A stretch of 64,000 nucleotides of DNA, taken from an uncultured Gammaproteobacteria bacterium. Its GTDB lineage: Bacteria > Patescibacteriota > Microgenomatia > Levybacterales > GWA1-39-11. Position numbers and translations under genes: made by a program. The stretch is from NCBI GenBank assembly GCA_964406795.1, contig CAYOTA010000007.1, forward strand, positions 5,898-69,897, in the 5' to 3' direction. How positions within the stretch are numbered: the first letter of the stretch is position 1; each line of letters begins with the position of its first letter. The notes beneath the pieces are model-generated. The model did not search any database. It was not told where the DNA came from and saw only the letters and a list, made by a program, of their open reading frames with translations. This document shows, piece by piece, positions 1,199 through 39,071 of the stretch.

Positions 1199-2071
1199 AT
1201 GATAGATGTGCATTGCCATTTAAATTTCTACAAGTTTAATAATGATTACGATCAGGTAATTAAAGATGCATTAAACGCTGGTGTTTCAAAAATTGTGAAT
1301 ACCGGTACTTCTATTGAATCCAGTGCCAAAGCTGTGGAATTAGCCTCAAAATATCCAGAACTGTATGCAATTGTGGGAATCCACCCACACCATGCAGATA
1401 AGACCGAAGCTTCGTTCTTGCAGTCCTCGGCTGCGCCTGCGGGCTTAAAAACAGACGCAAAATATGAGGGGATTCCAGCTGAGAATTGGCTGGAACAACT
1501 AGAGATTTTGGCCAAAAAGCCAAAAGTAATTGGAATTGGAGAAATAGGCATGGACTATTTTAGATACAAGTCTAATGGAATAGTTGAGAAAAAACTTCAG
1601 GAAGACGCATTTAGAAAACAGATAGAATTATCAATAAAGCTTGGATTACCGCTTCAAATACACAATAGGTTGGCGTGGGATGATACTTTAAACATGCTTT
1701 TAGAATACAAAAATCAGTTACAAAGGGTTCCGGGAATGTTCCATTGCTATTCGGGAAGCATAGGATTTACCAGGAAAGTTTTGGATGCGGGATTTTACCT
1801 GGGCTTTGATGGAAATTCCACCTATCCGGGAATTCCTCCCGGTGAAAGTACGTCACTTTCAGATCTTATAAAGTATGCACCCATGGATCGGATCCTTACA
1901 GAAACGGATAGTCCGTTTTTATCCCCACAAGAACTTCGCGGGACTCGCAATGTTCCTCAAAATGTTATAATTGTAGGAGAGCACATAGGGCATCTTAAAG
2001 GTATCTCAAAAGACGAAGTAAAGGCCGCAACTGAGGCTAATTTTAAAGCAGTTTTTGGAAAACATATATGA
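1199..2071 (+). CDS. TatD-family metal-dependent hydrolase/DNase
   Basis: N-terminal IDVHCHLNF (HxH metal site), a GIGEIGMDY motif and C-terminal TETDSPF are TatD/YabD hallmarks. The stop overlaps the next start in an ATGA junction. Confidence 0.85.
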   Translation: MIDVHCHLNFYKFNNDYDQVIKDALNAGVSKIVNTGTSIESSAKAVELASKYPELYAIVGIHPHHADKTEASFLQSSAAPAGLKTDAKYEGIPAENWLEQLEILAKKPKVIGIGEIGMDYFRYKSNGIVEKKLQEDAFRKQIELSIKLGLPLQIHNRLAWDDTLNMLLEYKNQLQRVPGMFHCYSGSIGFTRKVLDAGFYLGFDGNSTYPGIPPGESTSLSDLIKYAPMDRILTETDSPFLSPQELRGTRNVPQNVIIVGEHIGHLKGISKDEVKAATEANFKAVFGKHI

Positions 2072-3567
2072 TTAACACGTATCTTAATAAGTTTTTTACC
2101 CGTTACCCCAGAAAATCAATTCGTCTTCTTGAAATACTACCTCCGTTAACAGCGTTATTTTTAATCAGTATTCCGTTCTGGGGAGCGCTCATTTTTCCTG
2201 TAGAGTTAGCTTATTTTATTATTTTTTTTGACATATATTGGCTTTATAAATCATTAAATCTTGCTATTTGTTCATTTACTGCATCCCGGAAAATTAAAAA
2301 GGCAGAGAACACTAATTACGCAGCATTAGCAGCCCTTCAGCCAGACTTTAAAAAAGTGCATCACGTGGTAGTAATTCCAACATATAAGGAATCTGTAAGT
2401 AAATTATCAGACACCATTGAAAGCTTAAAAGCTCAAACTCTGCCATTATCCCAAATTCACATATTTTTAGGATTTGAAGTTCGTGAAGAAGAAGCACATT
2501 CTAAAGCAGAAGAGTTGATTAGTAGTTATGGAAAGATATTTGGTACGGTTCATGCTTCTTACCATCCGGATATAGAAGGCGAGTTAAAAGGAAAAGCGTC
2601 TAATCAGGCTTTTGCGGCTCGTGAGGCATATGACATGCTTGTTACAAGGAAAAAAATGGACGTAGATTTTATGACTGTGTCCTCCGTTGACGCAGATTCT
2701 ATATTTGACCCTCAATACTTTGCATATCTTACCTATGAATTTTTAATCTCCCCGGAAAGACACTTAAGATTTTTCATGTCAGCAAATGTGTATTACAATA
2801 ACTTCTGGAAGGTTCCAGCTGGAACACGCGTGTTTGCGTTTTTTGGAAGCTTGGTAAGAACGTCTTTATTAGTTCAAGGAATTCGTTTAATTCCAAATTC
2901 CACGTATACGTTATCTTTTAAGCTTTTGCATGACATAGATTTTTGGGATACCGACGTTATACCTGAAGATTATAGAGTATTCTTTAAGGCTTTTTTTCAA
3001 AAAAAAGGTCGGGTATCTGTGGTTCCAATTTTTCTTAAAACCTCCATGGACTCTCCTCAATCCATGACGTATTTTGGAAGTCTTATGAATAAATATAATC
3101 AAGAAAGACGTTGGTCATGGGGAATTTCAGACGACGCAGTATTTATAAAGTGGTGGCTAACAGTAAAAGATGTACCATTTTTGAAAAAAACATTCTTAGT
3201 TTCCAACGTTATGATGGATCACATTTTGTGGCCTGTGAACTGGTTTTTAATTACAATATCTGCAAATTTAGTAGTATTTTTAAATCCGGAATTCTCACGT
3301 ACAGCGCTAGGATACACGCTTCCTCATTTGTCAGGTTTCATTTTAACTATTTGTTTATTTGCACTGTTTGTTCTTATTTACGTTGACTTTGATTTGCGCT
3401 CTAATAAATATGCGTCTCCTCCTAAAATGAAACAATTTATGTTTCCGCTAGAATTTGTATTAATGCCTATAGCCGGCCTGTTTTTATCCACAATTCCAGC
3501 GTTAATCTCTCACATACAATTAATTCGCGGAAAACGCCTAGAATATAAGGTCACCGAAAAGGTGTAA
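2068..3567 (+). CDS. Membrane-embedded processive family-2 glycosyltransferase (CesA/PgaC/NodC-like)
   Basis: N-terminal TM helices, then VVIPTYKE (GT2 nucleotide-binding start), a SSVDADS D-x-D motif and QERRWSWG (the QxxRW motif of processive beta-glycan synthases), followed by C-terminal TM helices. Confidence 0.7.
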   Translation: MINTYLNKFFTRYPRKSIRLLEILPPLTALFLISIPFWGALIFPVELAYFIIFFDIYWLYKSLNLAICSFTASRKIKKAENTNYAALAALQPDFKKVHHVVVIPTYKESVSKLSDTIESLKAQTLPLSQIHIFLGFEVREEEAHSKAEELISSYGKIFGTVHASYHPDIEGELKGKASNQAFAAREAYDMLVTRKKMDVDFMTVSSVDADSIFDPQYFAYLTYEFLISPERHLRFFMSANVYYNNFWKVPAGTRVFAFFGSLVRTSLLVQGIRLIPNSTYTLSFKLLHDIDFWDTDVIPEDYRVFFKAFFQKKGRVSVVPIFLKTSMDSPQSMTYFGSLMNKYNQERRWSWGISDDAVFIKWWLTVKDVPFLKKTFLVSNVMMDHILWPVNWFLITISANLVVFLNPEFSRTALGYTLPHLSGFILTICLFALFVLIYVDFDLRSNKYASPPKMKQFMFPLEFVLMPIAGLFLSTIPALISHIQLIRGKRLEYKVTEKV

Positions 3568-3573
3568 TACAAC

Positions 3574-5109
3574 GTGAAAAAACTTATTCATTCATTTTGC
3601 AGATTGGAAATTGCGCCTCACGCATATGACTTCTTTTTATTAGGAGCTGTATTTGTTTTTTCTTTGCTTAGAATCCCATCCCTAATAGAACCCGAATGGT
3701 ATGGTGATGAAGGGATATATCAAGTAATTGGGGCAGCGTTAAATCAAGGCAGTCTGTTGTACCGTGACATATGGGACAATAAGCCTCCGCTTTTATATGT
3801 GTATTACGCATTAGTTAATGGAGATTTATTTGCCATTAAATTTATGTCTTTACTGTTTGGACTTGCCGCAGTTATTTCATTTTTCTTCCTTGCAAAAAGT
3901 ATCTTCCAAAATAAAAAATTACCTACGTTTGTTTCGACCAGCGTATTTGTGTATTTATTTGGTGCGCCAGTTCTGGAGGGAAATGTAGCAAATGCAGAAA
4001 ATTTTATACTTTTCCCCATTATTCTGTCTCTTCTATTAATTACTAAACTTACTTCAAGGTCAAACTTTTTAATACCCGTAGTATCCGGACTGTTACTGTC
4101 AATTGCCTTTTTAACAAAGATAGTTGCAGTTTTTGATCTTACTGCATTTTTGGTTATTCTTTTTTGCTTAAGGTTTTATAACAAAAATATTTTAGACATA
4201 AAAAGACACGCATTGTCCAAGCCAAAGGAATTTCTAGTAGCTATCAAACAAGAATTGTTGATTTTGGGTGCGTTTATAATTCCTATTTTTCTTACCTGGT
4301 TATATTTTGTTTTTATGGGTTCGTCATCAGAATTTTTAAGTGCAACATTTTCAAATAACGTTGGATATGTTGGATGGAAAAATTATTTTGTCATGCAAGT
4401 AGGAACTATAAATATTTCAATTCCTCAAGGATTACTTATTATAAAAATTATCTTACTGATAATAAGCACGTTAGGAATAATTATTTACAGAAAGAAGTTT
4501 TCCATCACATCGTTAATTGTGTATACGTGGCTTATATTTAGTTTATTTAATGCGTTTTTCTCAGGGCGCCCTTACACACATTATGTATTAACATTTGTTC
4601 CGGCATTCAGTTTGCTTATAGGACTAATATTTCTTCAGCGAAAACGGTTTGTTGCGCACGCAATAGTTGCATTTCTTGTGTTACTTCTGGTACGTGAGAA
4701 TTTTGATATATATAAAAAGAATTTTGCATACTATGTAAATTATACTGATTTTGTAATGGGAGAAAAGTCGGTTTCAGATTATCAGAAATTTTTTGATGGA
4801 GATACTCCCAAAAATTATGCTATCGCAGAATTTATTAAAGACAATACAAGCATCAACGAAAACGTTTTTCTCGTATCAAATAGTTCTACTATTTATTATA
4901 TGGCAGGTAAGTTTCCTCCAGGCCGATATATTGTAGGCTACCATATAGAGTCTTATAAAGAAGCTGTTCTTGAGACACAAAAAGCTTTAGTAAAGTCTAA
5001 GCCAAAATATATAATAAGCACTAATGATAGTTTAGCCAAAAATTTTATTGACAATTATCAATTGCAGTATATACTCTACAATGTAAAGATTTATGAGAAG
5101 CAATTTTAA
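3574..5109 (+). CDS. GT-C fold glycosyltransferase, ArnT/PMT (GT39/GT83)-like polytopic membrane protein
   Basis: N-terminal YGDEGIY...IWDNKPPLLY loop-1 motif typical of dolichyl/undecaprenyl-phosphate-sugar dependent GT-C enzymes, about 11 TM segments, and a soluble C-terminal domain. Confidence 0.65.
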   Translation: MKKLIHSFCRLEIAPHAYDFFLLGAVFVFSLLRIPSLIEPEWYGDEGIYQVIGAALNQGSLLYRDIWDNKPPLLYVYYALVNGDLFAIKFMSLLFGLAAVISFFFLAKSIFQNKKLPTFVSTSVFVYLFGAPVLEGNVANAENFILFPIILSLLLITKLTSRSNFLIPVVSGLLLSIAFLTKIVAVFDLTAFLVILFCLRFYNKNILDIKRHALSKPKEFLVAIKQELLILGAFIIPIFLTWLYFVFMGSSSEFLSATFSNNVGYVGWKNYFVMQVGTINISIPQGLLIIKIILLIISTLGIIIYRKKFSITSLIVYTWLIFSLFNAFFSGRPYTHYVLTFVPAFSLLIGLIFLQRKRFVAHAIVAFLVLLLVRENFDIYKKNFAYYVNYTDFVMGEKSVSDYQKFFDGDTPKNYAIAEFIKDNTSINENVFLVSNSSTIYYMAGKFPPGRYIVGYHIESYKEAVLETQKALVKSKPKYIISTNDSLAKNFIDNYQLQYILYNVKIYEKQF

Positions 5110-5446
5110 AATAGTATTTGCCGACAGGGTTATTTTCTACGCATTGCTAATTTCCATATTGGGAATTTTGCTGCAAATTGCGCTATCCGGTTTTCAATTT
5201 TTAAACTTACCTCCTGTTATTCCGTTATTTAATAGTCTGTCATGGGGGCAAGAACGACTTATTCACAAAATCTTTTTATTTGGTGTTCCTCTATTTTTAT
5301 TACTTATTTTAATCTTAAATCTTTCATGGGCTGCAAAGCTGTATAAAAAAAATGCCTTGTTGTCTAGAGTTCTTGTATTCAACGTTCTATTGGGCGTTTT
5401 TCTTTCTTGTATTGCTCTTGTGCAAATATTTTTTCTTGTATTTTAA
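5093..5446 (+). CDS. Small polytopic membrane protein (3-4 TM), possible GtrA-like flippase accessory
   Basis: Strongly hydrophobic 117-aa ORF that overlaps the GT-C gene end by 17 nt and ends 2 nt before the WecA-like start. No diagnostic motif. Confidence 0.3.
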   Translation: MRSNFKIVFADRVIFYALLISILGILLQIALSGFQFLNLPPVIPLFNSLSWGQERLIHKIFLFGVPLFLLLILILNLSWAAKLYKKNALLSRVLVFNVLLGVFLSCIALVQIFFLVF

Positions 5447-5448
5447 AA

Positions 5449-6492
5449 ATGAATTTTTTAACTTTTTTTGCTCCTTTTTTAGTTGCACTTATTATAGCAC
5501 TTGTGTCCGTACCAATTACTATAAAGTTTGCCAACAAATTTAAGTTAGTGGACGATCCTAAGACTCATAAGCATCCTGCTATAATTCACAAGAAACCAAC
5601 TCCCAGAGCTGGTGGACTACCTATATATATAGCTGTTTTTGTATCTTCAATTATTTTTCTTCCTTATAGTTTTCAGCTCTCAATGATTTTACTTTCCGGC
5701 TTGGGCGTTATAACAGTTGGCTTACTAGATGATAAGTATGATCTGTCTCCCTACATTCGTTTTGGCACAAATATTTTATTTGCCGCTATTGTAGTTTTTT
5801 CAGGTATTACTATCCCCTTTGTAACAAATCCTTTTGGAGGTATTCTTCAATTTTCAAGCGCAGACCTATCTGCATTTTTCATTCCTCAAATACTTGCTAT
5901 CATTTGGATTGTCTGGGTCATGAACATGCTAAATTGGAGCAAAGGGGTAGATGGGCAGATGCCAGGAATCGCGACAATATCAGCGATTGTTATAGGGATT
6001 GCATCACTTCGTTTTCCAGCGCTAGCCGAAGGAAATATTGTTGTTGCAGAATTAGCATTTCTGACGGCAGGTGCCTCCTTAGGTTTTTTGTTTTTTAATT
6101 TTTACCCTGCAAAAATATTTCCCGGATATAGTGCAACTTTATTAGGATTTTTGATTGGTATCCTTTCCATATTGTCAGGTGTAAAGCTTGCAACTGCAGT
6201 GTTAGTGATGGGCATACCTACGGCAGATGCACTTTTTACAATCTTACGGCGGACTATGTCAAAAAAGTCCCCCTTTTGGCATGATAAAGGGCATTTACAT
6301 CACCTTCTCTTGCAGCTAGGCCTGTCTCAACGAAGTATAGCCATGTTTTATTGGTCTATGTCAGCTGTGTTAGGTGCTATAGCATTAACACTATCTAGTA
6401 AAGGTAAACTTTTTGCTATAATTTTATTAGTAGTCTTGGTTACTGGCGGAATATTGTTCTTGCGTTTTGTAGCACGAAAAAAAGCAGCATGA
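5449..6492 (+). CDS. Polyprenyl-phosphate sugar-1-phosphate transferase (WecA/MraY family, GT4)
   Basis: VDDPKTHKHP...RAGGLPIY, LLDDKYDL (DDxxD) and NMLNWSKGVDGQMPG are MraY/WecA signatures. The ATG at 5449 follows the upstream stop; the ORF-track start at 5407 is probably an over-extension. Confidence 0.85.
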   Translation: MNFLTFFAPFLVALIIALVSVPITIKFANKFKLVDDPKTHKHPAIIHKKPTPRAGGLPIYIAVFVSSIIFLPYSFQLSMILLSGLGVITVGLLDDKYDLSPYIRFGTNILFAAIVVFSGITIPFVTNPFGGILQFSSADLSAFFIPQILAIIWIVWVMNMLNWSKGVDGQMPGIATISAIVIGIASLRFPALAEGNIVVAELAFLTAGASLGFLFFNFYPAKIFPGYSATLLGFLIGILSILSGVKLATAVLVMGIPTADALFTILRRTMSKKSPFWHDKGHLHHLLLQLGLSQRSIAMFYWSMSAVLGAIALTLSSKGKLFAIILLVVLVTGGILFLRFVARKKAA

Positions 6493-7427
6493 CAAACTCT
6501 TTGGGTTTTTATATTTTTAAATTAATGCGTCCACGTCAGTGGATTAAAAACTTTGCATTATTTGCAGCTCCCATGTTTGGAGCGCAACTATTCGTAGAGG
6601 ACTTGCTGTTTAAAATCAGTATGGGTTTTATAGCATTTTGTTTATTGTCCTCATCAACATATATCATAAATGATTTGTTAGATGTTCAAAAAGATAAACT
6701 GCATCCGTTTAAGAAAATGAGGCCGATAGCCAGCGGACACGTTTCTGTAAACCAAGCAATAGTTGTATTTGCAATCTTAATATTTTCGTCCCTTTTTGTT
6801 TCATATCAAATATCCGTATTCTTTCTTTTAATTTCTATTCTGTATTTAATACTTCAACTCTCTTATTCATTACTTTTTAAAAGCTTAGTAGTTTTTGATA
6901 TTCTGTTTATAGCAGCAGGATATATATTACGTGTTTTAGCAGGAGAAGTTATTTCAGGGTATCACATTTCTGTATGGTTGCTGTTGACCACCGTATCTCT
7001 TTCACTGTTCTTGGCTGTTGGAAAACGTCGCTCAGAGTTAACGCTTTTAAGAAATCAAACTGGCGCACATATAGCCAATGTCAGGAAAAGCCTATCTCAT
7101 TATTCGGATCATTTGCTTGATGCGTACTCAATGATGTTTGCGACCACAACTTTGATTTTTTATTCATTATTTACGTTTCTTGAAAGTACGAGGAGTGTTC
7201 AGCTGCCGGAAATATTATTGCCTGAATTTTTGCCTGAATACCTTCAGCGTAAGTGGCTCATGATTACAATCTTGCCCGTAATTTATGGCGTCATGAGATA
7301 TTTACAGGATATATATGAAAAAAGTGAAGGAGAAAGTCCAGACCGAGTATTGCTTTCAGACAAAGCGCTTTTGGCGGCAGTTATTTTGTGGGGAATACTG
7401 GTTATGTTTGTAATTTACGTGTTATAG
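6489..7427 (+). CDS. UbiA-family prenyltransferase, decaprenyl-phosphate phosphoribosyltransferase (DPPR synthase)-like
   Basis: N-terminal MRPRQWIKNFALFAAPMFG and NDLLDVQKDKLHP (Asp-rich motif), with about 8 TM. Resembles Rv3806c-type UbiA enzymes. ATGA overlap with the upstream gene. Confidence 0.75.
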   Translation: MTNSLGFYIFKLMRPRQWIKNFALFAAPMFGAQLFVEDLLFKISMGFIAFCLLSSSTYIINDLLDVQKDKLHPFKKMRPIASGHVSVNQAIVVFAILIFSSLFVSYQISVFFLLISILYLILQLSYSLLFKSLVVFDILFIAAGYILRVLAGEVISGYHISVWLLLTTVSLSLFLAVGKRRSELTLLRNQTGAHIANVRKSLSHYSDHLLDAYSMMFATTTLIFYSLFTFLESTRSVQLPEILLPEFLPEYLQRKWLMITILPVIYGVMRYLQDIYEKSEGESPDRVLLSDKALLAAVILWGILVMFVIYVL

Positions 7428-8264
7428 CTTCTTTTCAGCAAAGCTGCTGCTTATCCAGCCTTCGACTCCATTTTTCAGTTGTATTTTATACCAATCATTT
7501 TCTTCAGCTACAAGTACCAATTCATCTTTAGGAAGCACTCTCCCAATTTCTAAAGACGCGATATTTGGTTCCTGCCGTACTCGCAAAAAGCCGGTAGGGG
7601 TTGCGAGTATGGTAACTAGCCGCTGAATGGTTGTAGGTGTTGGACTTGGGGAACCAAGGCTCCCGGGAAGCACCTCTTCTGCTTCTGGCTGTGTTCCCAA
7701 AAGTGCTTCAATAACAAGTTTGTAGCCGGGAATAGTTTTAACACGAATCGTCTTTTTTCCATACCCTCCTTTTTGCAGTTCTACTTCATGTTCGGATGAT
7801 GATATGGGTGTGATTAAGTTTGGTGTAGCACCTGTTTCATTCCCATCCACTGAAACGAGAGCGCCTGAAGGAAGGGATGACACAAAAAGTTGCGGGTCAG
7901 TACCTGATGCCTTTTCAAGCGTAAGAATATATGAGCTCGCATAGCTTCCTGGAAGAAATGTTCTATCTACAGCTGTTAGAACACCGCGTCCTATTTTTAT
8001 TTTTGTTGAAAACTTTTCAAAGCCTCCTTCGGGTATTAATTCAAGCGTATAGTTTCCCGCATCTACCCTGTCTACCTGTTCACACTTGCACAGTGGAGTT
8101 GTCCCAAGTGTTTTTCCATTTAACACTACTTTAGCAGGTACATTTGACGTAACCTGGAGAGCTCCAGTACCTTTAGGGATAAGTGTGCCAGCAACTCGAA
8201 AGAGAAGAAAAAACCCTATGAAGATAACGAGAATAGAAAGCATACTGACGAACTTTTTTCGCAT
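7422..8264 (-). CDS. PEGA-domain / SH3b-domain membrane-anchored protein
   Basis: N-terminal TM helix. ALQVTSNVPAKVVLNGKTLGTTP and a second PEGA-like beta unit are present, plus a C-terminal WYKIQLKNGVEGWISSSF SH3b-like motif. Start taken at MRKKF (8264) rather than the ORF-track 8333. Confidence 0.55.
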   Translation of the reverse strand: MRKKFVSMLSILVIFIGFFLLFRVAGTLIPKGTGALQVTSNVPAKVVLNGKTLGTTPLCKCEQVDRVDAGNYTLELIPEGGFEKFSTKIKIGRGVLTAVDRTFLPGSYASSYILTLEKASGTDPQLFVSSLPSGALVSVDGNETGATPNLITPISSSEHEVELQKGGYGKKTIRVKTIPGYKLVIEALLGTQPEAEEVLPGSLGSPSPTPTTIQRLVTILATPTGFLRVRQEPNIASLEIGRVLPKDELVLVAEENDWYKIQLKNGVEGWISSSFAEKKL

Positions 8265-8327
8265 GTCATTATAGTAGCAAACAACTACAATCTTCTCAAC
8301 ATGCCAAAGACTAAGTTCTTGACAAAT

Positions 8328-8354
8328 TAGCACTCAATGTGATAGAGTGATAAC
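8328..8354 (+). promoter_or_regulatory. CIRCE operator (HrcA binding site) overlapping the hsp20 promoter
   Basis: TTAGCACTC-aatgtgata-GAGTGATAA against the consensus TTAGCACTC-N9-GAGTGCTAA: left arm perfect, right arm one mismatch. A TTGACA -35 hexamer lies at 8320-8325. Confidence 0.75.
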
Positions 8355-8940: not shown

Positions 8941-10596
8941 TTATGGTTTCCAGTTGCCGAGTAGAATGGAGAGATCCAGTGTGTTAATTGTGCCATTGTT
9001 ATTTAAGTCGGCCAGCGCATCATTACTTCCCCATCGAGATAATAAAAAGGATAAGTCTTGTACGTTCACCTTGCCGTCACGGTTTATGTCACCAATCGCA
9101 AATAGTGGAGGTGTTGGTGTACTCGTGGGAGTAGGTGTGCTGGTAAGGAATATGATTGGTGAAGCAGTGATAGGGGCTATAGTTGCGGTTGCCGTGGGAG
9201 TATTGGTTATTGTGGGAGTTGGGCTTGTGCCGCCCGTTTGTGTACTTTCCCTTGACCAAATCGCAAAATCTTTAGCAAGATATGGCCAAGCACCATTGTA
9301 CCAACTGTCTTGTGAAAATCTTAATTTTACAGTCTGAGTTCCTGCAGGAATTGGCGTCCAATATGAAGAGAATTGACCTGGTCGATGTTGTCCGGTTGCT
9401 TCTACGCTACCCAGCTGACGTGATGCAGGAGCGTAGGTTGCCCCATTATTATAGGAGACTTCAACGGTGCCCACTGCTGAAAATCGGAGATTTGCGTTTT
9501 CTGGTGCGGGTAAGTTAAATTGTAAGGTTTCAGAGTTACTGCTTATAGTTCTCTTATTCGCCTTAATCATGGTGAAGGGAACAGAACTCGAGATTTGCAC
9601 ATTATCCCAATGCCATGTGTTTGGTTTACATGTTCCATCAGGTCCCGGATGATTTGCTACAGCACAATCTTTTGTAGGGTTGTACGAGTGATGTCCTAAT
9701 TGGACAACTCCCTGGGTCCAGTCTAATTCGGGAATATCAGTATCTACCCAATAAATAGATCTGTTAGAGGTGAGTGGTTGTGGAGGTATTCCAAATTTAA
9801 TGCGATTTCTTGAAAGTTGAAGCTCAAATGTTGCTCTGTCTCTGGGACTTGGGGTAAGTATGTCATCATATTTTGAAAATTGATTAGAGCTAATCTCAGT
9901 TTCAACATAATTCCTAATAATATATGTCTTAAATATACCTTGATCTTGTTTGATGTGAATCGCGTTTTTTGGTGTTCCTTGCAGGTCGGGAAGCCAATCG
10001 TCAAGTGGTAGCTGCATGTTATCCTCATAAGGTGTAATCCATAAATCAATCCAATCACGGCTTGTTGACCGATAAGTAGACACGTCAAATTTTAGAGTAG
10101 TTGTTCCATTTGAAATATCCATTAGACGGTTAGGCGTTAGATATATAACCGCGTAACCTTCTTCGTTTATAGCAGTCATTATGTGATCTTTACACATAAA
10201 GACCGCATCCTCATATATCCCGGTGGTGAGATGAGTAACTAAGTTGCCTGCAGTATCAAGTGGAGGAGTGCATCCTATACCATGATGTGCGTCTTGTTGA
10301 TTTAATTTCTGTAATGTATCTACATCCCGGGAGTGGATTGCTACATCCCATTCATTTTGGCCAGCTTGCGTGAATGGCTGTGGGGTTGTAGGGGAACCAT
10401 CAAAAGTTTCAGTAAAAGGAGTAGGTAAGTTTTCAGCTGCATAATTTCTTATATCCTGATTTTGGGTAAACAGAAAGTATGTCACAAAAAATGCTCCTGT
10501 AATAAATAGAACCAGCAAGACGGAAAGACTCTTTTTATTCTTAATCAGTTTAGTAATTTTTTCTCTTGCACTAATTTTAGGAATAATTTTAATCAC
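8941..10596 (-). CDS. Secreted/anchored protein with Thr/Pro linker and C-terminal type-I dockerin module
   Basis: N-terminal TM/signal, a large domain of unknown function, a TPTPT linker, then GDINRDGKVNVQDLSFLLSRWG and ADLNNNGTINTLDLSILLGNWKP. These are two canonical 12-residue Ca-binding loops plus helices. Confidence 0.6.
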   Translation of the reverse strand: MIKIIPKISAREKITKLIKNKKSLSVLLVLFITGAFFVTYFLFTQNQDIRNYAAENLPTPFTETFDGSPTTPQPFTQAGQNEWDVAIHSRDVDTLQKLNQQDAHHGIGCTPPLDTAGNLVTHLTTGIYEDAVFMCKDHIMTAINEEGYAVIYLTPNRLMDISNGTTTLKFDVSTYRSTSRDWIDLWITPYEDNMQLPLDDWLPDLQGTPKNAIHIKQDQGIFKTYIIRNYVETEISSNQFSKYDDILTPSPRDRATFELQLSRNRIKFGIPPQPLTSNRSIYWVDTDIPELDWTQGVVQLGHHSYNPTKDCAVANHPGPDGTCKPNTWHWDNVQISSSVPFTMIKANKRTISSNSETLQFNLPAPENANLRFSAVGTVEVSYNNGATYAPASRQLGSVEATGQHRPGQFSSYWTPIPAGTQTVKLRFSQDSWYNGAWPYLAKDFAIWSRESTQTGGTSPTPTITNTPTATATIAPITASPIIFLTSTPTPTSTPTPPLFAIGDINRDGKVNVQDLSFLLSRWGSNDALADLNNNGTINTLDLSILLGNWKP

Positions 10597-26742: not shown

Positions 26743-29157
26743 ATGAAAAAATTTCTGCCCGTATTTATAAGTCTTTGTGCTTTTTTATTCCTTATTTTTT
26801 TAGTAAGTTCTCCTACCTTTGCATCAAATGGTGCGCCTACATTGGCACCCACAATCGCAGCTGGCCAGAAATTGGGTACTGATGCAACAGATAGATTTGT
26901 GCCTGATTCCAATGTTACATTCGTTGGGAAAACTGCAAGTAGAGCAGGTGATTTTTTAGACCTAACACTCAGAAATTATGACTGGGCATGTGTGACAAGA
27001 AATCCAGTAGATAATACCTGTGACAATAGAAACAATCCGCTAGCTGTATTTTGGGCCACTATCAGAAATATTATTTACGCAATTTTGGTAATCGTAGTGT
27101 TGGCCGCAGCCTTTATTATGATTGCAACTCGTGGAAGAAGTTTGACTATCACGCGCTTCATTCCCCGCTTTATACTCATAATTCTTTTAATAACATTTTC
27201 ATTTTCACTTGTTCAGTTTTTGTATCAAATTGCAGATATTATTCAGGGGTTTTTCCTGCGTACCGGAGAGGGGGCTGCTAGGCATATTATCTCAACTCGC
27301 GACCTCATATTTATAGGGTTTGATTACAAAAACTTTACAGGACTCAGGCTCCCGGGTCCGGAAAATGATGAGTCCGCATTTATGACACTTCTTTTAGTAC
27401 GACTTACCGCTGTTACTTATTACGTTATGACAGGAATTTTGATTGTGAGAAAAATTATCTTGTGGTTTTTTATAGTCTTGTCCCCAGTCTTTCCTCTTTT
27501 ATTGTTCTTTAAGATTATTAGAAATACAGCCAAAATTTGGATTGGTGAATTTTTCAGATGGCTGTTGTATGGTCCACTTTTTGCAATTTTCTTAAACGGT
27601 TTAGTTGTTTTATGGAGTAGCGGAAGTGAGACGAATCCTGGTATTCCGCTCGGGTTTACTATGGTAGGCGTAGGGGATCCAGGAAAAGTTATTTATCCAA
27701 CAGCCGTTAATATTTTGATTGGTGGACCTGGTCAAGCATTAGGTTTTAATAATTCAGTAAATACCCAAGACACATTTGCCTTGTATGTTGTAGCTCTCAT
27801 CATGTTATGGGTTGTTATGATTTTGCCGTTTATTCTGCTTAAGATTTTTCTTGACTTTGCCTCAGGATTGTCCATCCAAAACAACAGAGCATTTAAGCAG
27901 ATGTGGAATAAAGTTTCTCCCGTAACGCCTCCTCCGCCGTCTGGCCCACCACCTCCGGCAGGAGCTGGTTTGGCTATGAAAATGCCTTTTGGAGCCTCAA
28001 AAACTATTACTATGCCGGCTAGTACCTATACCAGTACAGGCTTAGCACGTGAGTTGCCGAGATCTGAAAATATTTCAAGATCAGTTCCAACGATTGCAAG
28101 AATTCCTGAAAATATGCGTATCTTACAGCAGGCAAACATAACAATTCCAAGACTAACGGATATTGCGCGTTTCGAAAAAACCATCGAAACACGTGACACA
28201 TCCAAAATTTCTGAAGTAACGCGCATGACAACTTCTCTGCAAAGAATTTCAAACCCTAGCTCAGTTTCCTCATCTGTTGAAAGAAGCAGGTATCAGCAGG
28301 TTAGAACAGAATTGGTGAAAGAACGCCAGAAGGGTAATGTGCTGGCTACATCTATTTTGAATGCAGCAAATGTTACAAACAACACAAATAATAACACTTC
28401 AAGTTCAAGAGTGGGTGGTTTGCATACTCAGTCAATTCAAAACAATTCATCCACAATAAATAATTCTCAAAGCTCAACTCTTAATAATTCACAGAGTTCT
28501 ACTGTTAATAACAGCCAGGTTTCAACAAGTATGTCAACGGGAGTTAAAAATGCATCAACAAATGTAGTAGGAGGCCAAGTTACAAGCGACGGAGTGCCAA
28601 AGACTGCGATGACAACTCCTTCCGCTGTTCATTTACCCGCAGTAAACAAAGTTCAGCAGGTAAGTATTGAGGATTATGAAGAGGTCAAGAAAATGTGGCT
28701 TGAAACATATGAAACATCCAGTCCTCCAACTGACTTAAATGGTAAAAAATCAACCCGGGATGAATGGATTACCAATGATATGAACAATATTAATCAAGCG
28801 GTGTCACTTTTGAATTCAGTGGATCCAATTAGAGTTAATGAGGGTATGAATATGGTCTCAAATATCCTTCCGTTTTTGATGGTTGGAGGATTTTCAAAAA
28901 CAGAGGTTGTTGCCTATCTTAAAGCAAAACTTGAAGCAGGAAAACAAGTAATGTCTTCCGGAACTAATAAAAAAGATGAGGATGACACGCTTCTTGACCG
29001 TAACACTCACACAACACAAGCAAGTAAGTATATGGAAGCACAACAAGCAGCTGCAATTCCAACTGATACGCCAGGCGCCCCAAGAGAAATGAGTGATGAA
29101 ATGTATAAAACTCCTACTGCTATTCAAAATAAGACTGAAGAATCAATTAAAAAATAG
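26743..29157 (+). CDS. VirB6/TrbL (TcpH-like) polytopic membrane protein with long low-complexity C-terminal tail
   Basis: Signal peptide and a Cys-containing exodomain, then 5-6 TM helices with VirB6-like spacing. The following roughly 400-aa tail is N/S/T/Q-rich with a PPPPSGPPPPAG segment. The architecture resembles Gram-positive conjugation TcpH. Confidence 0.45.
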   Translation: MKKFLPVFISLCAFLFLIFLVSSPTFASNGAPTLAPTIAAGQKLGTDATDRFVPDSNVTFVGKTASRAGDFLDLTLRNYDWACVTRNPVDNTCDNRNNPLAVFWATIRNIIYAILVIVVLAAAFIMIATRGRSLTITRFIPRFILIILLITFSFSLVQFLYQIADIIQGFFLRTGEGAARHIISTRDLIFIGFDYKNFTGLRLPGPENDESAFMTLLLVRLTAVTYYVMTGILIVRKIILWFFIVLSPVFPLLLFFKIIRNTAKIWIGEFFRWLLYGPLFAIFLNGLVVLWSSGSETNPGIPLGFTMVGVGDPGKVIYPTAVNILIGGPGQALGFNNSVNTQDTFALYVVALIMLWVVMILPFILLKIFLDFASGLSIQNNRAFKQMWNKVSPVTPPPPSGPPPPAGAGLAMKMPFGASKTITMPASTYTSTGLARELPRSENISRSVPTIARIPENMRILQQANITIPRLTDIARFEKTIETRDTSKISEVTRMTTSLQRISNPSSVSSSVERSRYQQVRTELVKERQKGNVLATSILNAANVTNNTNNNTSSSRVGGLHTQSIQNNSSTINNSQSSTLNNSQSSTVNNSQVSTSMSTGVKNASTNVVGGQVTSDGVPKTAMTTPSAVHLPAVNKVQQVSIEDYEEVKKMWLETYETSSPPTDLNGKKSTRDEWITNDMNNINQAVSLLNSVDPIRVNEGMNMVSNILPFLMVGGFSKTEVVAYLKAKLEAGKQVMSSGTNKKDEDDTLLDRNTHTTQASKYMEAQQAAAIPTDTPGAPREMSDEMYKTPTAIQNKTEESIKK

Positions 29158-29209: not shown

Positions 29210-31927
29210 ATGTTCGGAAATTTATTTACTCCAAAAAAAGACGATGTGTTAAATGGTTTACCTCAAGATGCGCCTGTAGTGTCTACTGAATCACAAGAGA
29301 CTATGAGTATGGGGCAGCAGTCGGGTATATCCAGCTCAGATCAGGACATGAATGCCGGAGGAATAGATCCCCAAAAAAGGCAAAGTATGTCAGCTCTTTC
29401 CAAACTTGATCCTCGATCTTTGCAGGTTTTGCACCATGCTGAGCAAGAAACTAAACGCGTTCAAGCCTCTCAAATTGGCTCTGAACAGCTGCTTTTAGGA
29501 ATGTTTTATGACGGTGAGATTTTTCAACTTCTAGAAAGTTTCCAAGTGGATGTGGCAAAGCTGACACAGCAAATTCAAAGCAAAGAAAAACCTGGCGGAT
29601 TTACCGGACAGCCCACCATGAGTACTGCCGTAATTCAGATATTTGATGAGGGTTACAAAAGTGCAAAAAAAAGAGGCGCTTCCTTTGTCTCCCCGGAAGA
29701 TATATTGGTTGGATTCTTTGCGGATCCCGCAACAACCTCATTTTTAAAAGCATTTGGAATTGAAAAAGGAAAACTGGATGATAAACTTTCCAAAACAACT
29801 TCTTTTGCCCAATCATCTAGAAAATCAGTGTTGGAAAAATATGGAATTGATCTGACTCAGGAGGCAAAAGATGGAAAGCTTGACCCAGTTGTAGGCCGAG
29901 ACAAAGAAACAGAGCGTTTAATTCACATTTTATTAAGACGCACAAAAAATAACCCTATTATTATAGGTGAAGCTGGAGTTGGAAAAACGGCTATTGTTGA
30001 GGCACTTGCACAAAAAATAGTAGAAGGATCAGTTCCTCATGATCTACTAGACAAAAGAATTATTCAGCTTGAATTGTCATCCCTTGTGGCAGGTGCGTCT
30101 CACAGAGGTGAGTTTGAGGAGCGACTTCAGGATGTAATTCATGAAACCCAGGCTTCAAATGGGAAAATTATTTTGTTTATAGACGAGATACACACGCTCA
30201 TTGGCGCTGGAGACACGGGCGGAGCACTTGACGCGTCCAATATCATAAAGCCATATTTGGCCCGTGGACAGCTGCAACTTATCGGAACTACCACTACGGC
30301 CGAATACAGAAAGCATTTTGAAAAAGATAAGGCATTTGAAAGACGTTTCCAGTCAGTGTTAGTAGATGAACCTGAAGAAGAAGTAGCGCAGCAAATGTTG
30401 GACGTACTGCGTCCTAAATATGAAAAATTTCACTCTGTAGTTATAACCCCAGAAGCAATTGAGGCAGCAGTTCATTTGTCAAAAAAATATATTGGTGAGC
30501 GCTATCTTCCGGATAAGGGAGTTGACCTATTGGATGAGGCTGCCGCTGAGGTAAAACTTCAGCACACTGAGGGCAAGCGTGCAGATAATAATGTGGTGAA
30601 AGCTGACATTGAAAAAGTGGTTGCAGCTTGGACCGGAATTCCTATAACCAGACTTACTGAAGATGAAAGTCAAAAACTAATTCATTTGGAAGACACAATT
30701 CACAAGCGCTTTATAGATCAAGAAGAAGCTGTAGGATCAGTATCTGAGGCTGTAAGACGCGGAAGAATTGGACTCTCGGCCGCCAACAGACCCATTGCGT
30801 CATTTATTTTCCTAGGCCCTACGGGTGTAGGTAAAACAGAGTTAGCTAAAACGCTTGCTGAAATTTTATTTGGCCGCGATGACTTACTGGTCAGACTTGA
30901 TATGTCTGAATATATGGAAAAGCATGAGGTAGCAAAGCTTATAGGTGCACCTCCTGGGTATGTAGGATATGAGGAGGGTGGACAGTTAACGGAGGCGGTA
31001 CGTGCAAAACCCTATTCTATTGTGTTGCTGGATGAAATTGAAAAAGCTCATCCTGATGTGTTTAATATTCTTTTGCAGCTTTTGGAAGATGGTCGCTTAA
31101 CTGACAATAAAGGAAACACAATTTCATTTAAGAACACTATCATAATTGCGACTTCAAACATTGGAAGCTCAGTTATTCAGCAGACATTATTAACACAAGC
31201 ATCCAACGGAACGCAAGTAGTATCCCCGGAAGAAGAAGCTAAAAAGTATTCTGAACTGTCAGCAACCCTTATGGAAGAGTTGAGAAAATTCTTTAAACCG
31301 GAGCTGTTAAATCGTTTTGATGACATAGTTATGTTTAAACCCTTACGAATGCGCGATATGGCCCAAATTGCAAAATTGGGAATAGGAAAAACACAAAAAT
31401 TACTGGAAGAGCAAAAAATCCATTTGGAAATAACAGAGAAAGCAATTGGAATATTGGCAAAAGAAGGATACGATCCAGTTTATGGTGCGCGACCTTTAAG
31501 ACGCCTTGTCCAGACCGCAATTGAAAATCCCATTGCAGTTCTATTAATCAACAAAACATTTGTGCCGGGGGATATTATTAAAATCGATTATGATGATGCA
31601 AAGTCTGAGTTTACCTTTACAAAAGGTGTACCTGCGGTTGCAGGGCCTCAACCATCTATATCTGAGACAGCACAAAATCCAGTTGTTCAGCCTCAATACG
31701 TGAATCAAGCACCTCAAGCTTCAGGTGTGTCAGCTAATCCATCAGGTATTGCCCAACCGCAACAGACTCAGCCCATGAATGCTATGCCTCAGCAGCCAGT
31801 AGATGATCCAAATGCAGGAATTTTGTCACAGATTGCGCAGGAACACACAGTAACACCTATACCATCAGCACCAAATGGTACTGCTCCTCAGCCTGGAGTT
31901 GGCGGAACCATGATGCAACCCGCATAA
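29210..31927 (+). CDS. clpC: ClpC-like class-I AAA+ unfoldase (Clp_N, D1, short linker, D2) with disordered N- and Q/P-rich C-terminal extensions
   Basis: Two Clp_N repeats; D1 Walker [10 protein letters not shown] and Walker B ILFIDEIH; D2 [12 protein letters not shown] and LLDEIEKAH; GAR sensor-2. There is no long ClpB M-domain. No [LIV]G[FL] tripeptide occurs at the ClpP-loop position ([22 protein letters not shown]). Confidence 0.85.
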
Positions 31928-36378: not shown

Positions 36379-36705
36379 ATGGGTATTCTGCTCTATCCCT
36401 TTGTAGTGCTTTTATTTTGGTATAAAGATGGTCTCTTGTCTATCTTTTCATTTTTCGGATCACTTAATGATTATTCTCTAAGGCTATTCTCACTTCCCGG
36501 TCTTTTTGCCACATACTTCAGGCCGCTTAAAAACGAATACAGAAAAAACCTTATTTTGTTTTCAATTCTATTTGGAATGGTTGTTAAAACATTTCTTATC
36601 ATAGGTTCATTGACTATTTTTTCCATAATTTTACTGTGTGAACTAATCGTCATTAGCATATATTTAATTTTCCCGCTTTTGCCAATTATTTTATTTTTAG
36701 GATGA
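36379..36705 (+). CDS. Small 3-TM membrane protein, translationally coupled to the downstream membrane ClpC paralog
   Basis: 108 aa and hydrophobic, with an ATGA stop/start overlap with 36702. Confidence 0.4.
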   Translation: MGILLYPFVVLLFWYKDGLLSIFSFFGSLNDYSLRLFSLPGLFATYFRPLKNEYRKNLILFSILFGMVVKTFLIIGSLTIFSIILLCELIVISIYLIFPLLPIILFLG

Positions 36706-39071
36706 AACTATTTAATTATTACGACTTTTATAAGTTGTACTCTCTGGTACCCATGAGGGTTTTGCGTGTTTTAATTTTGTTGGGATTAGCTAGTCTTATA
36801 ATTCTTAACTATGAAGAGTTTTTATTGTTTAGACTTTTTCTCATAATTTATACACTCTTTCTTATTAACGAGATATTTATTTACTTTAAATTAAACAAGT
36901 CTTTCCCCCGATTTTTAGTTATAGATAATAAAGCAAATTTTGAAGGCTCCACTCTTTTTAAAACAAAGAAAATTATGTCAGGAAGGAATCTTTTCTCCAA
37001 TCTTCATGACTTATTCAAAGAAATAGACGTAGCATTTCTTATAGAAAGAATTGGCGGAACCATGCAAAGTTATGAGCAGGTAGATCTAAAAATCTTATAT
37101 GAAAAATCTTTAGAAGTGGCTCGGCGATCTGGGGGAAAATACATAACATCCGCCGATGTTGCGGTCGCATATTTACTTATCACGGAAGAAAAAACAAAAT
37201 ATTTGTTTCAGCAAGAAATAACAGAAAACGATTTATATGAAATACTTATGTGGGCACGTGGGAGGTATGGTTTAGATCGAGCTAAATCAAGCACATTGCA
37301 CTTCACCGGTTATGGGGTTTTTGACTTCTTTATTTATGGATGGGATACATTAATTAAAGAATATTCGTATGACATTTCTTTAAGTGTAATCAATAAACAT
37401 GAAACGCCAATTGTTGGCCGGGAAAAAGAGTTTCATGCAATGGTATCTATATTATCTAAAAATACAGCAAATAATGTTATTTTACTTGGGGAGCCAGGTG
37501 TTGGAAGATCGGCGTTAGTGCGCAAATTTGCACTTGAAGCATATAGAGACTCTCACTTTGTGCTGGCACACACAAAAGTATATGAGTTATTGGCAGACAG
37601 ACTACTTTCAGGAGTGCAAAACACGGGGGACCTAGAGTCTCGGTTATCTCTCTTGTTAGCTGAACTGGAGCATTCAGGGAATATTATTTTGTTTATTCAA
37701 AATATAGAAAATATATTTGGTGGCGGTGGGTTTAACTTTGATATGTCAGGTATTCTGTTTCAATACTTAAAAAGTGGGCGGGTGCAGATAATTGGAACAA
37801 CAACTCAATCTTTCTATAAAACCGTGCTTGAGAAAAAACCCAGCATATCTAATTTATTTGAAAAAATAAGAATTGAGGAGCCTGACCGGGCAAATATTTT
37901 CCAGATGATTGCTTCACATGTGGATATTATTGAGCATGAGTATCAACTGTCTGTCTCATATAAAGCAATTCATGAATCCGTTGAGTTATCTTCTACATAC
38001 ATGCCTGATTTATATCTTCCGGGAAAGGCAATAAATCTTTTATCTGATGTTGCGGCCCAAGCCAGAATGAATGGACAAAAAAATGTCTCCAAAGATGACG
38101 TAACGCGTGTTATTCAGGAGAAGACAAATATAATCCTTGAAAAGCCTACGGAAGAAGAGAAGAAAACGCTATTGTCGCTTGAGGCAGATTTACATAAAAG
38201 AGTTATTGGGCAAAATGAAGCAGTTGATGCTGTTGCAAAAGCCATCAGACGACTGCGTTCAGGATTTTCTCAGCATAACAGGCCCATTTCAGTATTTTTG
38301 TTTTTAGGCCCAACAGGGGTTGGAAAAACTGAGACAGCAAAAGCACTGGCTGCATTATATTTTGGCGATGAAAATTCCATGATCAGGCTTGATATGTCTG
38401 AGTATCAAACTCAAAATGAAGTAGAGCGTTTACTCGGTGGAATTCCTGGAGGGGAAGAACTTGCTAACTCATTGCCGGAAGCAGTAAGACAGCATCCATT
38501 TTCACTCCTTCTTTTAGATGAGTTTGAAAAAGCACATCCTCGTATTTTGGATATTTTTCTTCAAATTTTTGAAGATGGACGTCTTACTGATAACCAGGGT
38601 AAAACAGTTTCATTTAAAAACACAATTATTATTGCAACTTCCAACGCTGGATCAGAACTAATAAGACAAATGGTTAAAATGGGCCTAAACGGAGATAATA
38701 TGAAAAATGACTTGGTTGAGGCATTGCTTTCAAATGGCCAATTTAAACCAGAATTACTTAATAGATTTGATGACGTTATCGTGTTTAAACCGCTTACTGT
38801 TGAAGAAGCTTCTCAAATAGCCGGTCTATTGCTCTCACATTCACTAAAAACATTAGAAGATGATCAAATATATCTTACATTTGATGCAAGTGTTATCGAA
38901 AAGATAGTAAGGGAGTCTTATGACCAGGAGGCAGGAGCACGTAATATGAGAAGGTATATAGGTTCTACAATCGAGGATTTTATATCTAAACTTATTCTTG
39001 AGAATAAACTCGCTCGAGGAACACACGCAGTAATTGGTACTGATGTAAACGGAAATTATATACTACAATAA
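36702..39071 (+). CDS. Membrane-anchored ClpC paralog with degenerate (pseudo-ATPase) D1 and intact D2
   Basis: Two N-terminal TM helices and a Clp_N-like repeat. The D1 Walker A is GEPGVGRSA (K to R, T to S), the Walker B is ILFIQNIEN (DE to QN), and the Arg-finger region is altered. D2 is intact ([26 protein letters not shown]). An MGL tripeptide sits at the ClpP-loop position (KMGLNGDN aligned to ClpC KHLGFNVQD). Confidence 0.75.
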   Translation: MKLFNYYDFYKLYSLVPMRVLRVLILLGLASLIILNYEEFLLFRLFLIIYTLFLINEIFIYFKLNKSFPRFLVIDNKANFEGSTLFKTKKIMSGRNLFSNLHDLFKEIDVAFLIERIGGTMQSYEQVDLKILYEKSLEVARRSGGKYITSADVAVAYLLITEEKTKYLFQQEITENDLYEILMWARGRYGLDRAKSSTLHFTGYGVFDFFIYGWDTLIKEYSYDISLSVINKHETPIVGREKEFHAMVSILSKNTANNVILLGEPGVGRSALVRKFALEAYRDSHFVLAHTKVYELLADRLLSGVQNTGDLESRLSLLLAELEHSGNIILFIQNIENIFGGGGFNFDMSGILFQYLKSGRVQIIGTTTQSFYKTVLEKKPSISNLFEKIRIEEPDRANIFQMIASHVDIIEHEYQLSVSYKAIHESVELSSTYMPDLYLPGKAINLLSDVAAQARMNGQKNVSKDDVTRVIQEKTNIILEKPTEEEKKTLLSLEADLHKRVIGQNEAVDAVAKAIRRLRSGFSQHNRPISVFLFLGPTGVGKTETAKALAALYFGDENSMIRLDMSEYQTQNEVERLLGGIPGGEELANSLPEAVRQHPFSLLLLDEFEKAHPRILDIFLQIFEDGRLTDNQGKTVSFKNTIIIATSNAGSELIRQMVKMGLNGDNMKNDLVEALLSNGQFKPELLNRFDDVIVFKPLTVEEASQIAGLLLSHSLKTLEDDQIYLTFDASVIEKIVRESYDQEAGARNMRRYIGSTIEDFISKLILENKLARGTHAVIGTDVNGNYILQ

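Follow-up and report, generated by a model that had tools for sequence, protein, structure and literature searches.

Gene organization of the locus

The window analysed here, i.e., the whole stretch of 64,000 nucleotides (contig CAYOTA010000007.1 of assembly GCA_964406795.1, positions 5,898 to 69,897 of the forward strand), carries at positions 2068-7427 a block of five genes predicted to encode a UbiA-family phosphoribosyltransferase, three glycosyltransferases and a small membrane protein. As developed below, we consider it probable that this block specifies a cell-envelope glycosylation pathway organised around the transfer of a pentofuranose outside the cytoplasm. The window has a G+C content of ~36%, and its housekeeping genes (GroEL, TatD, MetRS, pyrimidine synthesis, hrcA-grpE-dnaK, ClpB, sortase, Tgt/QueA) are typical of Patescibacteria, or Candidate Phyla Radiation (CPR). 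The nearest named relatives of the block proteins are found in Candidatus Levybacteria. The data covered the window and ~20 kb per related genome, and the negative results reported below apply to these neighbourhoods, not to whole genomes; functions were inferred throughout from sequence and predicted structure. A preliminary description of the window had placed five co-directional genes at 2068-7427, and these were all confirmed as open reading frames (ORFs) of the plus strand. They are given here with the two genes that border them:

1199..2071, + strand: TatD-family metal-dependent hydrolase (Pfam TatD_DNase, 243 bits)
2068..3567, + strand: membrane-embedded glycosyltransferase of family 2 (GT2), 499 aa (Pfam Glyco_trans_2_3)
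3574..5109, + strand: predicted GT-C glycosyltransferase (protein B), 511 aa (from its fold and the Pfam matches of its orthologs)
5093..5446, + strand: small membrane protein, 117 aa (no Pfam family)
5449..6492, + strand: Glycos_transf_4 protein (GT4), predicted WecA/TagO-like polyprenyl-phosphate N-acetylhexosamine-1-phosphate transferase (PNPT), 347 aa from ATG 5449 (Pfam Glycos_transf_4)
6489..7427, + strand: predicted UbiA-family polyprenyl-phosphate 5-phosphoribosyltransferase (PPPRS, or DPPRS where the lipid is decaprenyl phosphate), 312 aa (NF008978)
7422..8333, - strand: membrane-anchored protein with two PEGA domains, a Pro/Thr-rich linker and an SH3b domain (Pfam PEGA 70 bits, SH3_3 45 bits)

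The junctions between these genes are tight. TatD and GT2 overlap by 4 nt, a 6-nt gap separates GT2 from the GT-C gene, the latter overlaps the 117-aa gene by 17 nt, and GT4 and UbiA share 4 nt; the gap between the 117-aa gene and GT4 is 2 nt when GT4 is started at ATG 5449. Mechanical ORF calling starts GT4 at TTG 5407 (361 aa), and the ATG start gives a 347-aa product that fits the 347-348 aa of its homologs. The PEGA-SH3 gene converges on UbiA with an overlap of 6 nt. Promoter and terminator scans returned no more sites than expected from shuffled sequence, so that no operon boundaries can be claimed, and the window gave no matches to tRNA genes or Rfam families.

The UbiA-family protein is a predicted phosphoribosyltransferase of the Rv3806c type

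The UbiA-family protein matched Pfam PF01040 with 79 bits and the NCBIfam DPPR-synthase model NF008978 with 221.3 bits (cutoff 207). Two sister DPPRS models scored below their own cutoffs (220 bits for a cutoff of 234, and 179 bits for a cutoff of 474), and the models for quinone, chlorophyll, haem and archaeal-lipid prenyltransferases all remained at or below 53 bits. Among proteins of known structure, the best match was Rv3806c of Mycobacterium tuberculosis (8j8j, E = 1.3e-39, residues 9-301), followed at a distance by chlorophyll synthase (3e-7) as the next family. The protein has no extra domain and, in particular, no fused haloacid dehalogenase (HAD) phosphatase.

In Rv3806c, phosphoribosyl pyrophosphate (PRPP) and Mg are bound by R22, K28, Y70, N73, D77, K87, R90, Q135, Y138, K143 and Y157, of which the phosphoribose-specific ligands K28, Y70, Q135 and Y157 are not conserved across other UbiA enzymes (PMC10994848). 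The 8j8j alignment showed that all 11 residues are identical in the window protein (R14, K20, Y58, N61, D65, K75, R78, Q123, Y126, K131 and Y145). We then followed these positions in 83 orthologs with 45-84% identity. The residues of the Mg2+/pyrophosphate site and of the Lys/Arg cluster (N61, D65, R14, K75, R78, K131, Y126) were invariant in 83/83, as were the phosphoribose-specific K20 and Y58. Q123 was kept in 72 of the 83 (His in 10) and Y145 in 76, the other seven carrying Phe, as do some mycobacteria.

These data bear on an alternative view of the locus, in which the cluster would be a generic collection of membrane proteins and its UbiA homolog a conventional prenyltransferase of the aromatic or isoprenoid type, serving quinone, haem or lipid synthesis. 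Membership of the UbiA superfamily and the two DPPRS models that fall below cutoff are in keeping with it; however, NF008978 is passed while every other prenyltransferase model stays at 53 bits or less, and the 11 PRPP/Mg ligands are all kept, the phosphoribose-specific ones included. We consider this alternative very improbable, and it is effectively refuted by the model scores, the 8j8j match and the conservation of the ligands. The Rv3806c-type identity advanced in the preliminary description is therefore upheld, and a placement with the menaquinone/ubiquinone prenyltransferases, which would have spoken against it, was not observed (179-221 bits for the DPPRS models). By its sequence, the protein is predicted to be a genuine polyprenyl-phosphate phosphoribosyltransferase, and its membership of this family is as strong as a test of this kind can make it.

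The gene block is conserved among Patescibacteria

When one genome per GTDB species was scanned, at least 574 genomes were found to encode a close relative of the UbiA protein. The loci of the best 80 of these at least 574 genomes were studied in detail by mapping the window proteins onto them, which yielded 70 evaluable distinct loci. These best 80 genomes were all from Patescibacteria (Levybacteria, other Microgenomates, Gottesman- and Woesebacteria, and a few labelled Parcubacteria/Paceibacterota). The strict order TatD-GT2-GT-C-small-GT4-UbiA was present in 62 of the 70 loci, from different species, and three further loci contained all of the genes but showed an insertion or a divergent small ORF. 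As this order recurs at protein identities down to 28-45%, the block cannot be due to chance. A convergent PEGA/SH3 gene almost always follows UbiA, including in loci that lack GT2 or GT-C. The GroEL and MetRS genes flank the block on differing sides in different lineages, which indicates at least one relocation of the block as a whole; in the lineage of the window, all genes from TatD to PEGA lie in inverted orientation between GroEL and MetRS.

The incomplete loci delineate a core. GT2 is kept and GT-C is absent in two of them (L029 and L082), and a third has no GT2 and reads GluRS / GT-C-small-GT4-UbiA (L085). Both GT2 and GT-C are missing from L077, which retains only small-GT4-UbiA-PEGA, and from L076, which retains only GT4-UbiA. 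Two distant loci carry an extra GT-C of the PMT type (PMT and PMT_4TMC) directly after UbiA (L081, 7577-8968; L086, 3583-4986). The tightest core is small-GT4-UbiA(-PEGA); GT-C recurs beside this core and GT2 is usually attached to it.

TatD, which consistently heads the block, borders GT2 in almost every locus and has MetRS immediately upstream in most, an arrangement known from Bacillus subtilis as metS-yabD. TatD probably belongs to this ancestral MetRS-TatD pair and not to the glycan pathway. A role of TatD as the 5-phosphatase discussed below would be pure speculation, since the MetRS-TatD pairing in most loci explains its position more simply.

Many third-party-annotation (TPA) metagenome-assembled genomes bearing the titles 'uncultured Gammaproteobacteria' or 'Pseudomonadales' (L008, L010, L013, L015-L018 and others) have the Patescibacteria block and Patescibacteria-like neighbours. 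These titles appear to be placeholders or wrong taxonomy.

Three predicted glycosyltransferases accompany the UbiA-family enzyme

The GT-C orthologs occupying the same slot of the block (43-57% identity) matched Pfam PMT_2 with 28-49 bits (cutoff 26.1) and PMT with 26-37 bits (cutoff 22.7). The AlphaFold model of protein B (pLDDT 90, pTM 0.89) has a GT-C_A fold with a C-terminal extracytoplasmic alpha/beta domain. Foldseek aligned it with AglB (7e9s, E = 2e-7) and ArnT (5f15, E = 3e-6, best TM 0.53/0.50), then with PglB, STT3, DPY19 and protein O-mannosyltransferase (PMT), each with a probability of 1.00, whereas matches to the mycobacterial Emb proteins were weak (E ~0.1-0.9). Within a WYGDE motif, residues D45-E46 directly follow the first transmembrane helix, at the beginning of the first extracytoplasmic loop, and are found in 70 of 71 orthologs; this position is the one at which GT-C enzymes carry their catalytic acid. 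The fold model and the orthologs that exceed the PMT_2 and PMT thresholds bear out the earlier assignment as an ArnT/PMT-like enzyme and are at odds with a generic membrane protein of unspecified (DUF-type) function. Protein B is thus predicted to be a GT-C of the ArnT/PMT/oligosaccharyltransferase (OST) class that would use a sugar donor linked to polyprenyl phosphate.

GT2 matched Pfam Glyco_trans_2_3 with 35 bits (cutoff 27) and consists of two N-terminal transmembrane helices, a GT-A domain and C-terminal transmembrane helices. Its QxxRW motif reads QERRW (residues 345-349), and D208xD210, E300-D301 and Q345/R348/W349 are invariant in 70/70 orthologs. The structures closest to its model (pLDDT 82) were BcsA (5ej1, E = 2e-8), the Chlorella virus hyaluronan synthase (HAS; 7sp7), Xenopus HAS and PcManGT (6yv7), the BcsA and HAS matches spanning E = 2e-8 to 1e-7 with TM values of 0.44-0.50. 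The model supports a cellulose/hyaluronan-synthase-like enzyme, not one like GtrB or dolichol-phosphate mannose synthase (DPMS). GT2 had been described as a processive QxxRW synthase: the motif and the synthase-like fold were both recovered, and from these we infer that the enzyme may be processive. Profile searches of the PDB with the GT-C and GT2 families returned nothing significant, and both were linked to these structures by fold comparison alone.

GT4 matched Glycos_transf_4 (PF00953) with 92 bits (cutoff 27) and MraY in the PDB (E = 1e-12). Its scores against the equivalog models were far below their cutoffs, both for WecA (TIGR02380, 93 bits, cutoff 326) and for MraY (TIGR00445, 55 bits, cutoff 192). 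D108-D109 is conserved in 80/80 orthologs and H296-L-H298-H299 in 78-80/80; we take this DD pair of a cytoplasmic loop and the HLHH motif to be PNPT/WecA-like. N173, N176, G180, D182 and G183 are kept in 78-80/80, and the first Asp of the NxxNxxDGxDG motif is replaced by Lys in 69 of the 80. An initiating transferase of the WecA/MraY family had been proposed, in agreement with the PF00953 score and the two motifs, and the sequence is read as that of a diverged, WecA-like PNPT. A housekeeping MraY was rejected as the primary reading on the basis of the MraY score and the WecA-like motifs.

The 117-aa protein defines a family with three transmembrane segments

The product of the small gene has three hydrophobic segments, with its N-terminus inside according to the positive-inside rule and its C-terminus outside; the outside loop bears a conserved LPPxIPLFNxLPWGxxRL motif. 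An exhaustive profile search collected 843 clusters of relatives at 50% identity, and the best 150 of the 843 were all stand-alone proteins of 105-171 aa, which gave no fusion ('Rosetta stone') clue to function. Its length and position are kept in nearly every locus, and its gene adjoins GT4-UbiA even where GT2 or GT-C is absent. The 117-aa ORF encodes a real protein. None of 33 members matched any Pfam family at E<=10, GtrA (PF04138) included, and the segments number three instead of four; the GtrA-like identity that had been considered possible was consequently rejected. More speculatively, the protein is a candidate flippase or accessory subunit.

A sigma-70-like site was noted at 5048-5075 on the plus strand, within the 3' end of the GT-C gene (TTGACA, 16 nt, TATACT; 11 of 12 consensus matches). 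It lies just upstream of small-GT4-UbiA and fits the minimal core of the distant loci, in a scan that overall was not above shuffled expectation.

Epimerase, phosphatase and flippase genes are not linked to the block

The preliminary description had likened the cluster to an arabinan pathway based on decaprenyl-phospho-arabinofuranose (DPA) and had suggested a search for dprE1/dprE2-like genes. DprE1 and DprE2 probes, verified to be identical to chains A and C of PDB 21gq, gave no match at E<=10 among stop-to-stop ORFs of at least 70 aa in the window and 86 related loci (+-10 kb; 1.56 Mb in total). Pfam scans of the window showed no short-chain dehydrogenase/reductase (SDR) and no FAD_binding_4 match, and neither an FAD-dependent oxidase nor an SDR was present in the Pfam-annotated +-10 kb around three related loci (L001, L003 and L005). 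With no DprE1/DprE2 linked, the donor is more likely polyprenyl-phospho-ribofuranose than DPA. The arabinan/DPA-type assignment is not supported by these neighbourhoods: in addition to the lack of DprE1/DprE2, no PAP2 protein like Rv3807c was found in the window or near the three relatives, and the predicted GT-C resembles ArnT, OST and PMT more closely than Emb.

No LCP ligase was found in the block, in the window or in the annotated surroundings of the three relatives. In one of them, which belongs to Levybacteria, an MFS transporter gene lies between UbiA and the PEGA/SH3 gene (L003, 13883-15058) and could be a lineage-specific flippase candidate.

A proposed pathway for pentofuranose transfer

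A scheme for related systems was published by Kelly et al. (2024), in which a PPPRS uses PRPP to produce, once the 5-phosphate has been removed, polyprenyl-phospho-ribofuranose; this lipid is flipped by a small transporter, and its pentose is then attached by a GT-C to a glycan outside the cytoplasm (PMC11127046). Applied to the CPR block, such a pathway would start at the cytoplasmic face, where the UbiA enzyme would join the ribose-5-phosphate of PRPP to polyprenyl phosphate, giving polyprenyl-phospho-ribofuranose-5-phosphate; this step is strongly supported by the sequence comparisons above. The 5-phosphate would then be removed by a phosphatase, for which the block encodes no candidate, and the donor would most likely stay ribofuranose, no 2'-epimerase being linked. 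The lipid-linked sugar would be flipped across the membrane, possibly, and this is speculative, by the 117-aa protein. Finally, the ArnT/PMT-like GT-C, whose fold is shown by the model, would move the pentose to an acceptor at the outer face. The likeliest acceptor would be a polymer primed on polyprenyl-pyrophosphate-N-acetylhexosamine by the WecA-like GT4 and elongated and exported by the synthase-like GT2. Alternatively, Ser/Thr-rich surface proteins may be the acceptors, since the PEGA-SH3 neighbour and the protein encoded at 8941-10596 have Pro/Thr/Ser-rich linkers and the predicted GT-C falls in the family of the protein O-mannosyltransferases. The PEGA-SH3 protein itself might serve as acceptor or as a partner in wall binding.

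The presence of a DPPRS-clade UbiA protein in one operon with a GT-C, a WecA-like initiator and a synthase-like GT2 makes a polyprenyl-phospho-pentose donor that is used outside the membrane the best reading, as had been suggested at the outset. We estimate at roughly 60% the probability that the block is a core-genome cell-envelope glycosylation operon of Levybacteria and Microgenomates built around an extracytoplasmic pentofuranose-transfer module. Several points weigh against it. Protein B of the window, taken by itself, had no Pfam match (even at E<=1), no NCBIfam match and no significant sequence match in the PDB, and the functions of the CPR members are predictions from sequence and modelled structure. 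GT-C and UbiA are separable (GT-C is absent from L029 and L082, and both GT2 and GT-C from L076 and L077), which means that the GT-C could use another lipid-linked donor. Synteny extends over much of the Levybacteria genome surrounding the block, and conserved adjacency is therefore weaker functional evidence than in more rearranged genomes. Moreover, neither a Pfam-recognisable 5-phosphatase (HAD of the PRP type, or PAP2) nor a flippase of the small multidrug resistance (SMR), MATE or Wzx type was found in the block, the window or the annotated neighbourhoods of the three relatives, which leaves two steps of the pathway without a recognised candidate; genes for an epimerase and a phosphatase could lie elsewhere in the genome.

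One rival of a ribofuranose donor is a true DPA pathway, as put forward in the preliminary description, in which polyprenyl-phospho-ribose would be epimerised by DprE1/DprE2-type enzymes encoded elsewhere and the GT-C would act as an arabinofuranosyltransferase for an arabinan-like glycan or for proteins, as TfpW does on Pseudomonas pilin. The PPPRS step is common to the ribose and arabinose routes, the view is limited to ~20 kb per related genome, and to our knowledge dprE1/dprE2 of M. tuberculosis are not immediately adjacent to ubiA either. However, neither the 64-kb window nor any of the 86 related loci contains an ORF resembling DprE1 or DprE2, and the GT-C model matches Emb weakly (E ~0.1) when compared with ArnT (3e-6). 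Clusters that add arabinofuranose (Araf) or xylofuranose (Xylf) carry a DprE1/E2 or ORF13-type epimerase, with epimerase genes found within every such cluster examined by Kelly et al., whereas clusters devoid of an epimerase add ribofuranose (PMC11127046). An arabinose route is thus quite unlikely.

The incomplete loci raise a different question, whether the operon holds two independent modules: GT2 would make a polyprenyl-phospho-hexose or a polymer for the GT-C, in a Gtr/YfhO- or PMT-type system, and small-GT4-UbiA would form a unit of its own, supplying phosphoribosyl-lipid to another GT-C encoded elsewhere. The minimal core small-GT4-UbiA-PEGA fits this arrangement, as do the loci with GT2 and no GT-C (L029, L082) or the reverse (L085), and the different PMT-type GT-C that comes right after UbiA in L081 and L086. 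A promoter-like sequence close to consensus also lies ahead of the small gene, at 5048-5075, but the promoter scan as a whole did not exceed the shuffled expectation. The best structural matches of GT2 include the minimal synthase-like PcManGT, a mannosyltransferase that does not polymerise; yet GT2 is not GtrB/DPMS-like, its best structures are BcsA and HAS, and its QxxRW motif is invariant. Finally, the five genes are contiguous in 62 of the 70 loci with ends that overlap or nearly touch. On balance we regard two separate modules as unlikely.

The pentofuranose-transfer proposal may be extended, tentatively and at odds well below even, to a general statement: all Levybacteria and related Microgenomates would make a secondary cell-wall glycopolymer, with the WecA-like enzyme priming it and GT2 polymerising it, and the ArnT-like GT-C would extend or decorate it outside the membrane with ribofuranose taken from polyprenyl-phospho-ribose; the three-transmembrane family (843 clusters), not recognised before, would provide a flippase for the lipid-linked pentose or an obligatory subunit of the GT4/PPPRS pair. 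Should this be the case, the block would represent a minimal CPR counterpart of the logic of mycobacterial arabinogalactan. CPR bacteria have very small genomes, envelopes that are mostly undescribed and an epibiont lifestyle that depends on surface contact. That a block of six to seven genes which would commit PRPP and polyprenyl phosphate to a surface glycan is kept in at least several hundred species suggests that a glycoconjugate with pentofuranose is a core component of the envelope in this lineage.

Comparison with known systems

The CPR block is of a kind known elsewhere and not a new principle: its enzymes all belong to known superfamilies and the logic of the pathway has been published. 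The survey of PPPRS systems by Kelly et al. covered Burkholderia, Escherichia coli, Rhizobium, Xanthomonas, Bacillus and a phage, and no CPR organism (PMC11127046). With these systems and at least 574 species genomes encoding a close UbiA relative, the view that such a cluster is unusual outside Actinobacteria is outdated. Full-text literature searches found no earlier description of the block in CPR/Patescibacteria. A PPPRS/GT-C pentofuranose system was thus previously undescribed in the CPR group, and its composition differs from the known ones; the recently defined systems are hereby extended to a new major clade.

As in the three-component ORF15-ORF14-ORF12 systems of Citrobacter youngae O1/O2 (PMC11127046), a UbiA-family PPPRS is encoded beside a GT-C. 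The systems of Kelly et al. and the CPR block also share a GT-C that is closest to ArnT and, where no epimerase gene is present, ribofuranose as the sugar, which for CPR is a prediction. However, the CPR PPPRS is neither fused to a HAD phosphatase domain nor linked to a separate phosphatase, the block lacks an EmrE/ArnE-like or SMR flippase and has the three-transmembrane protein in that position, and the predicted GT-C falls, through its orthologs, in the PMT_2/PMT sequence family and has no carbohydrate-binding module (CBM). In addition, the CPR module is joined in one operon to a WecA-like initiator and a synthase-like GT2, and it is part of a conserved core genome, not of a variable serotype-modification locus.

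The mycobacterial DPA/arabinan pathway (Rv3806c, Rv3807c, DprE1/DprE2, Rv3789, Emb/Aft and WecA-primed arabinogalactan) would have the same first committed enzyme, with identical PRPP/Mg ligands, and the same logic of a WecA-type primer, a cytoplasmic GT2 and an extracytoplasmic GT-C that transfers from a polyprenyl-phospho-pentose. The CPR block differs from it by the absence of DprE1/DprE2 (window and 86 loci), of PAP2 (window and three relatives) and of a GtrA-like Rv3789 (among the 117-aa family). Furthermore, its predicted GT-C resembles ArnT/OST/PMT more than Emb or Aft, and its GT2 is a membrane-embedded synthase and not of the soluble GlfT2 type. The arabinosylation of group IV pilin in Pseudomonas aeruginosa (TfpW and PsPA7_6246-6249) is another case of a PPPRS and a GT-C outside Actinobacteria, in which a protein acceptor, possible also for CPR, is used. 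Unlike the CPR block, the Pseudomonas cluster encodes homologs of DprE1/DprE2 and a phosphatase. No pilin gene is linked to the CPR block, although surface proteins with Pro/Thr-rich linkers are encoded beside it. The three-component systems for hexose or Ara4N modification (ArnT/ArnC/ArnEF and Gtr/YfhO-CsbB) likewise employ a GT-C of ArnT-like fold, whose polyprenyl-monophosphate sugar is synthesised on the cytoplasmic side; however, that donor is made from a UDP-sugar by a GT2 of the GtrB/ArnC type. The CPR donor synthase is predicted to be of the PRPP-dependent UbiA type, and the GT2 of the operon is synthase-like and not GtrB-like.

Synthase-dependent O-antigen assembly and, in outline, arabinogalactan synthesis provide a precedent for a WecA-like initiator working with a synthase GT2. 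The O antigen of Salmonella O:54 (WbbE/WbbF) is WecA-primed and assembled by the synthase-dependent route, in which a HAS/cellulose-synthase-like membrane GT2 elongates and exports the polymer. The GT4-GT2 link in CPR would be of this kind and is putative, and the O:54 system, unlike the CPR block, has no pentofuranose module.

Other features of the window

The true start of the PEGA-SH3 protein is probably the Met at ~8264; its linker is rich in Pro, Thr and Ser. Beyond it, 8941-10596 on the minus strand encodes a 551-aa protein of the secreted type, in which an extended Pro/Thr-rich linker is combined with a dockerin/EF-hand-like module at the C-terminus. Pro/Thr-rich linkers are typical O-glycosylation sites.

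Further along the window, an 804-aa TrbL/VirB6-like membrane protein is encoded at 26743-29157. Two ClpB-type AAA+ paralogs (29210-31927 and 36702-39071, plus strand) flank genes for a subtilase, an M64-like protein and DnaJ. At 40440-45809 (minus strand), a sortase gene adjoins three large ORFs of 367, 742 and 419 aa that have no Pfam match and probably encode sortase-dependent surface or pilus proteins. An AcrB-type RND transporter (1112 aa) and an HlyD-like adaptor are encoded at 57669-62477 on the minus strand; the transporter stands out in a CPR genome to which the sortase and the SH3b wall-binding proteins otherwise give a monoderm appearance.

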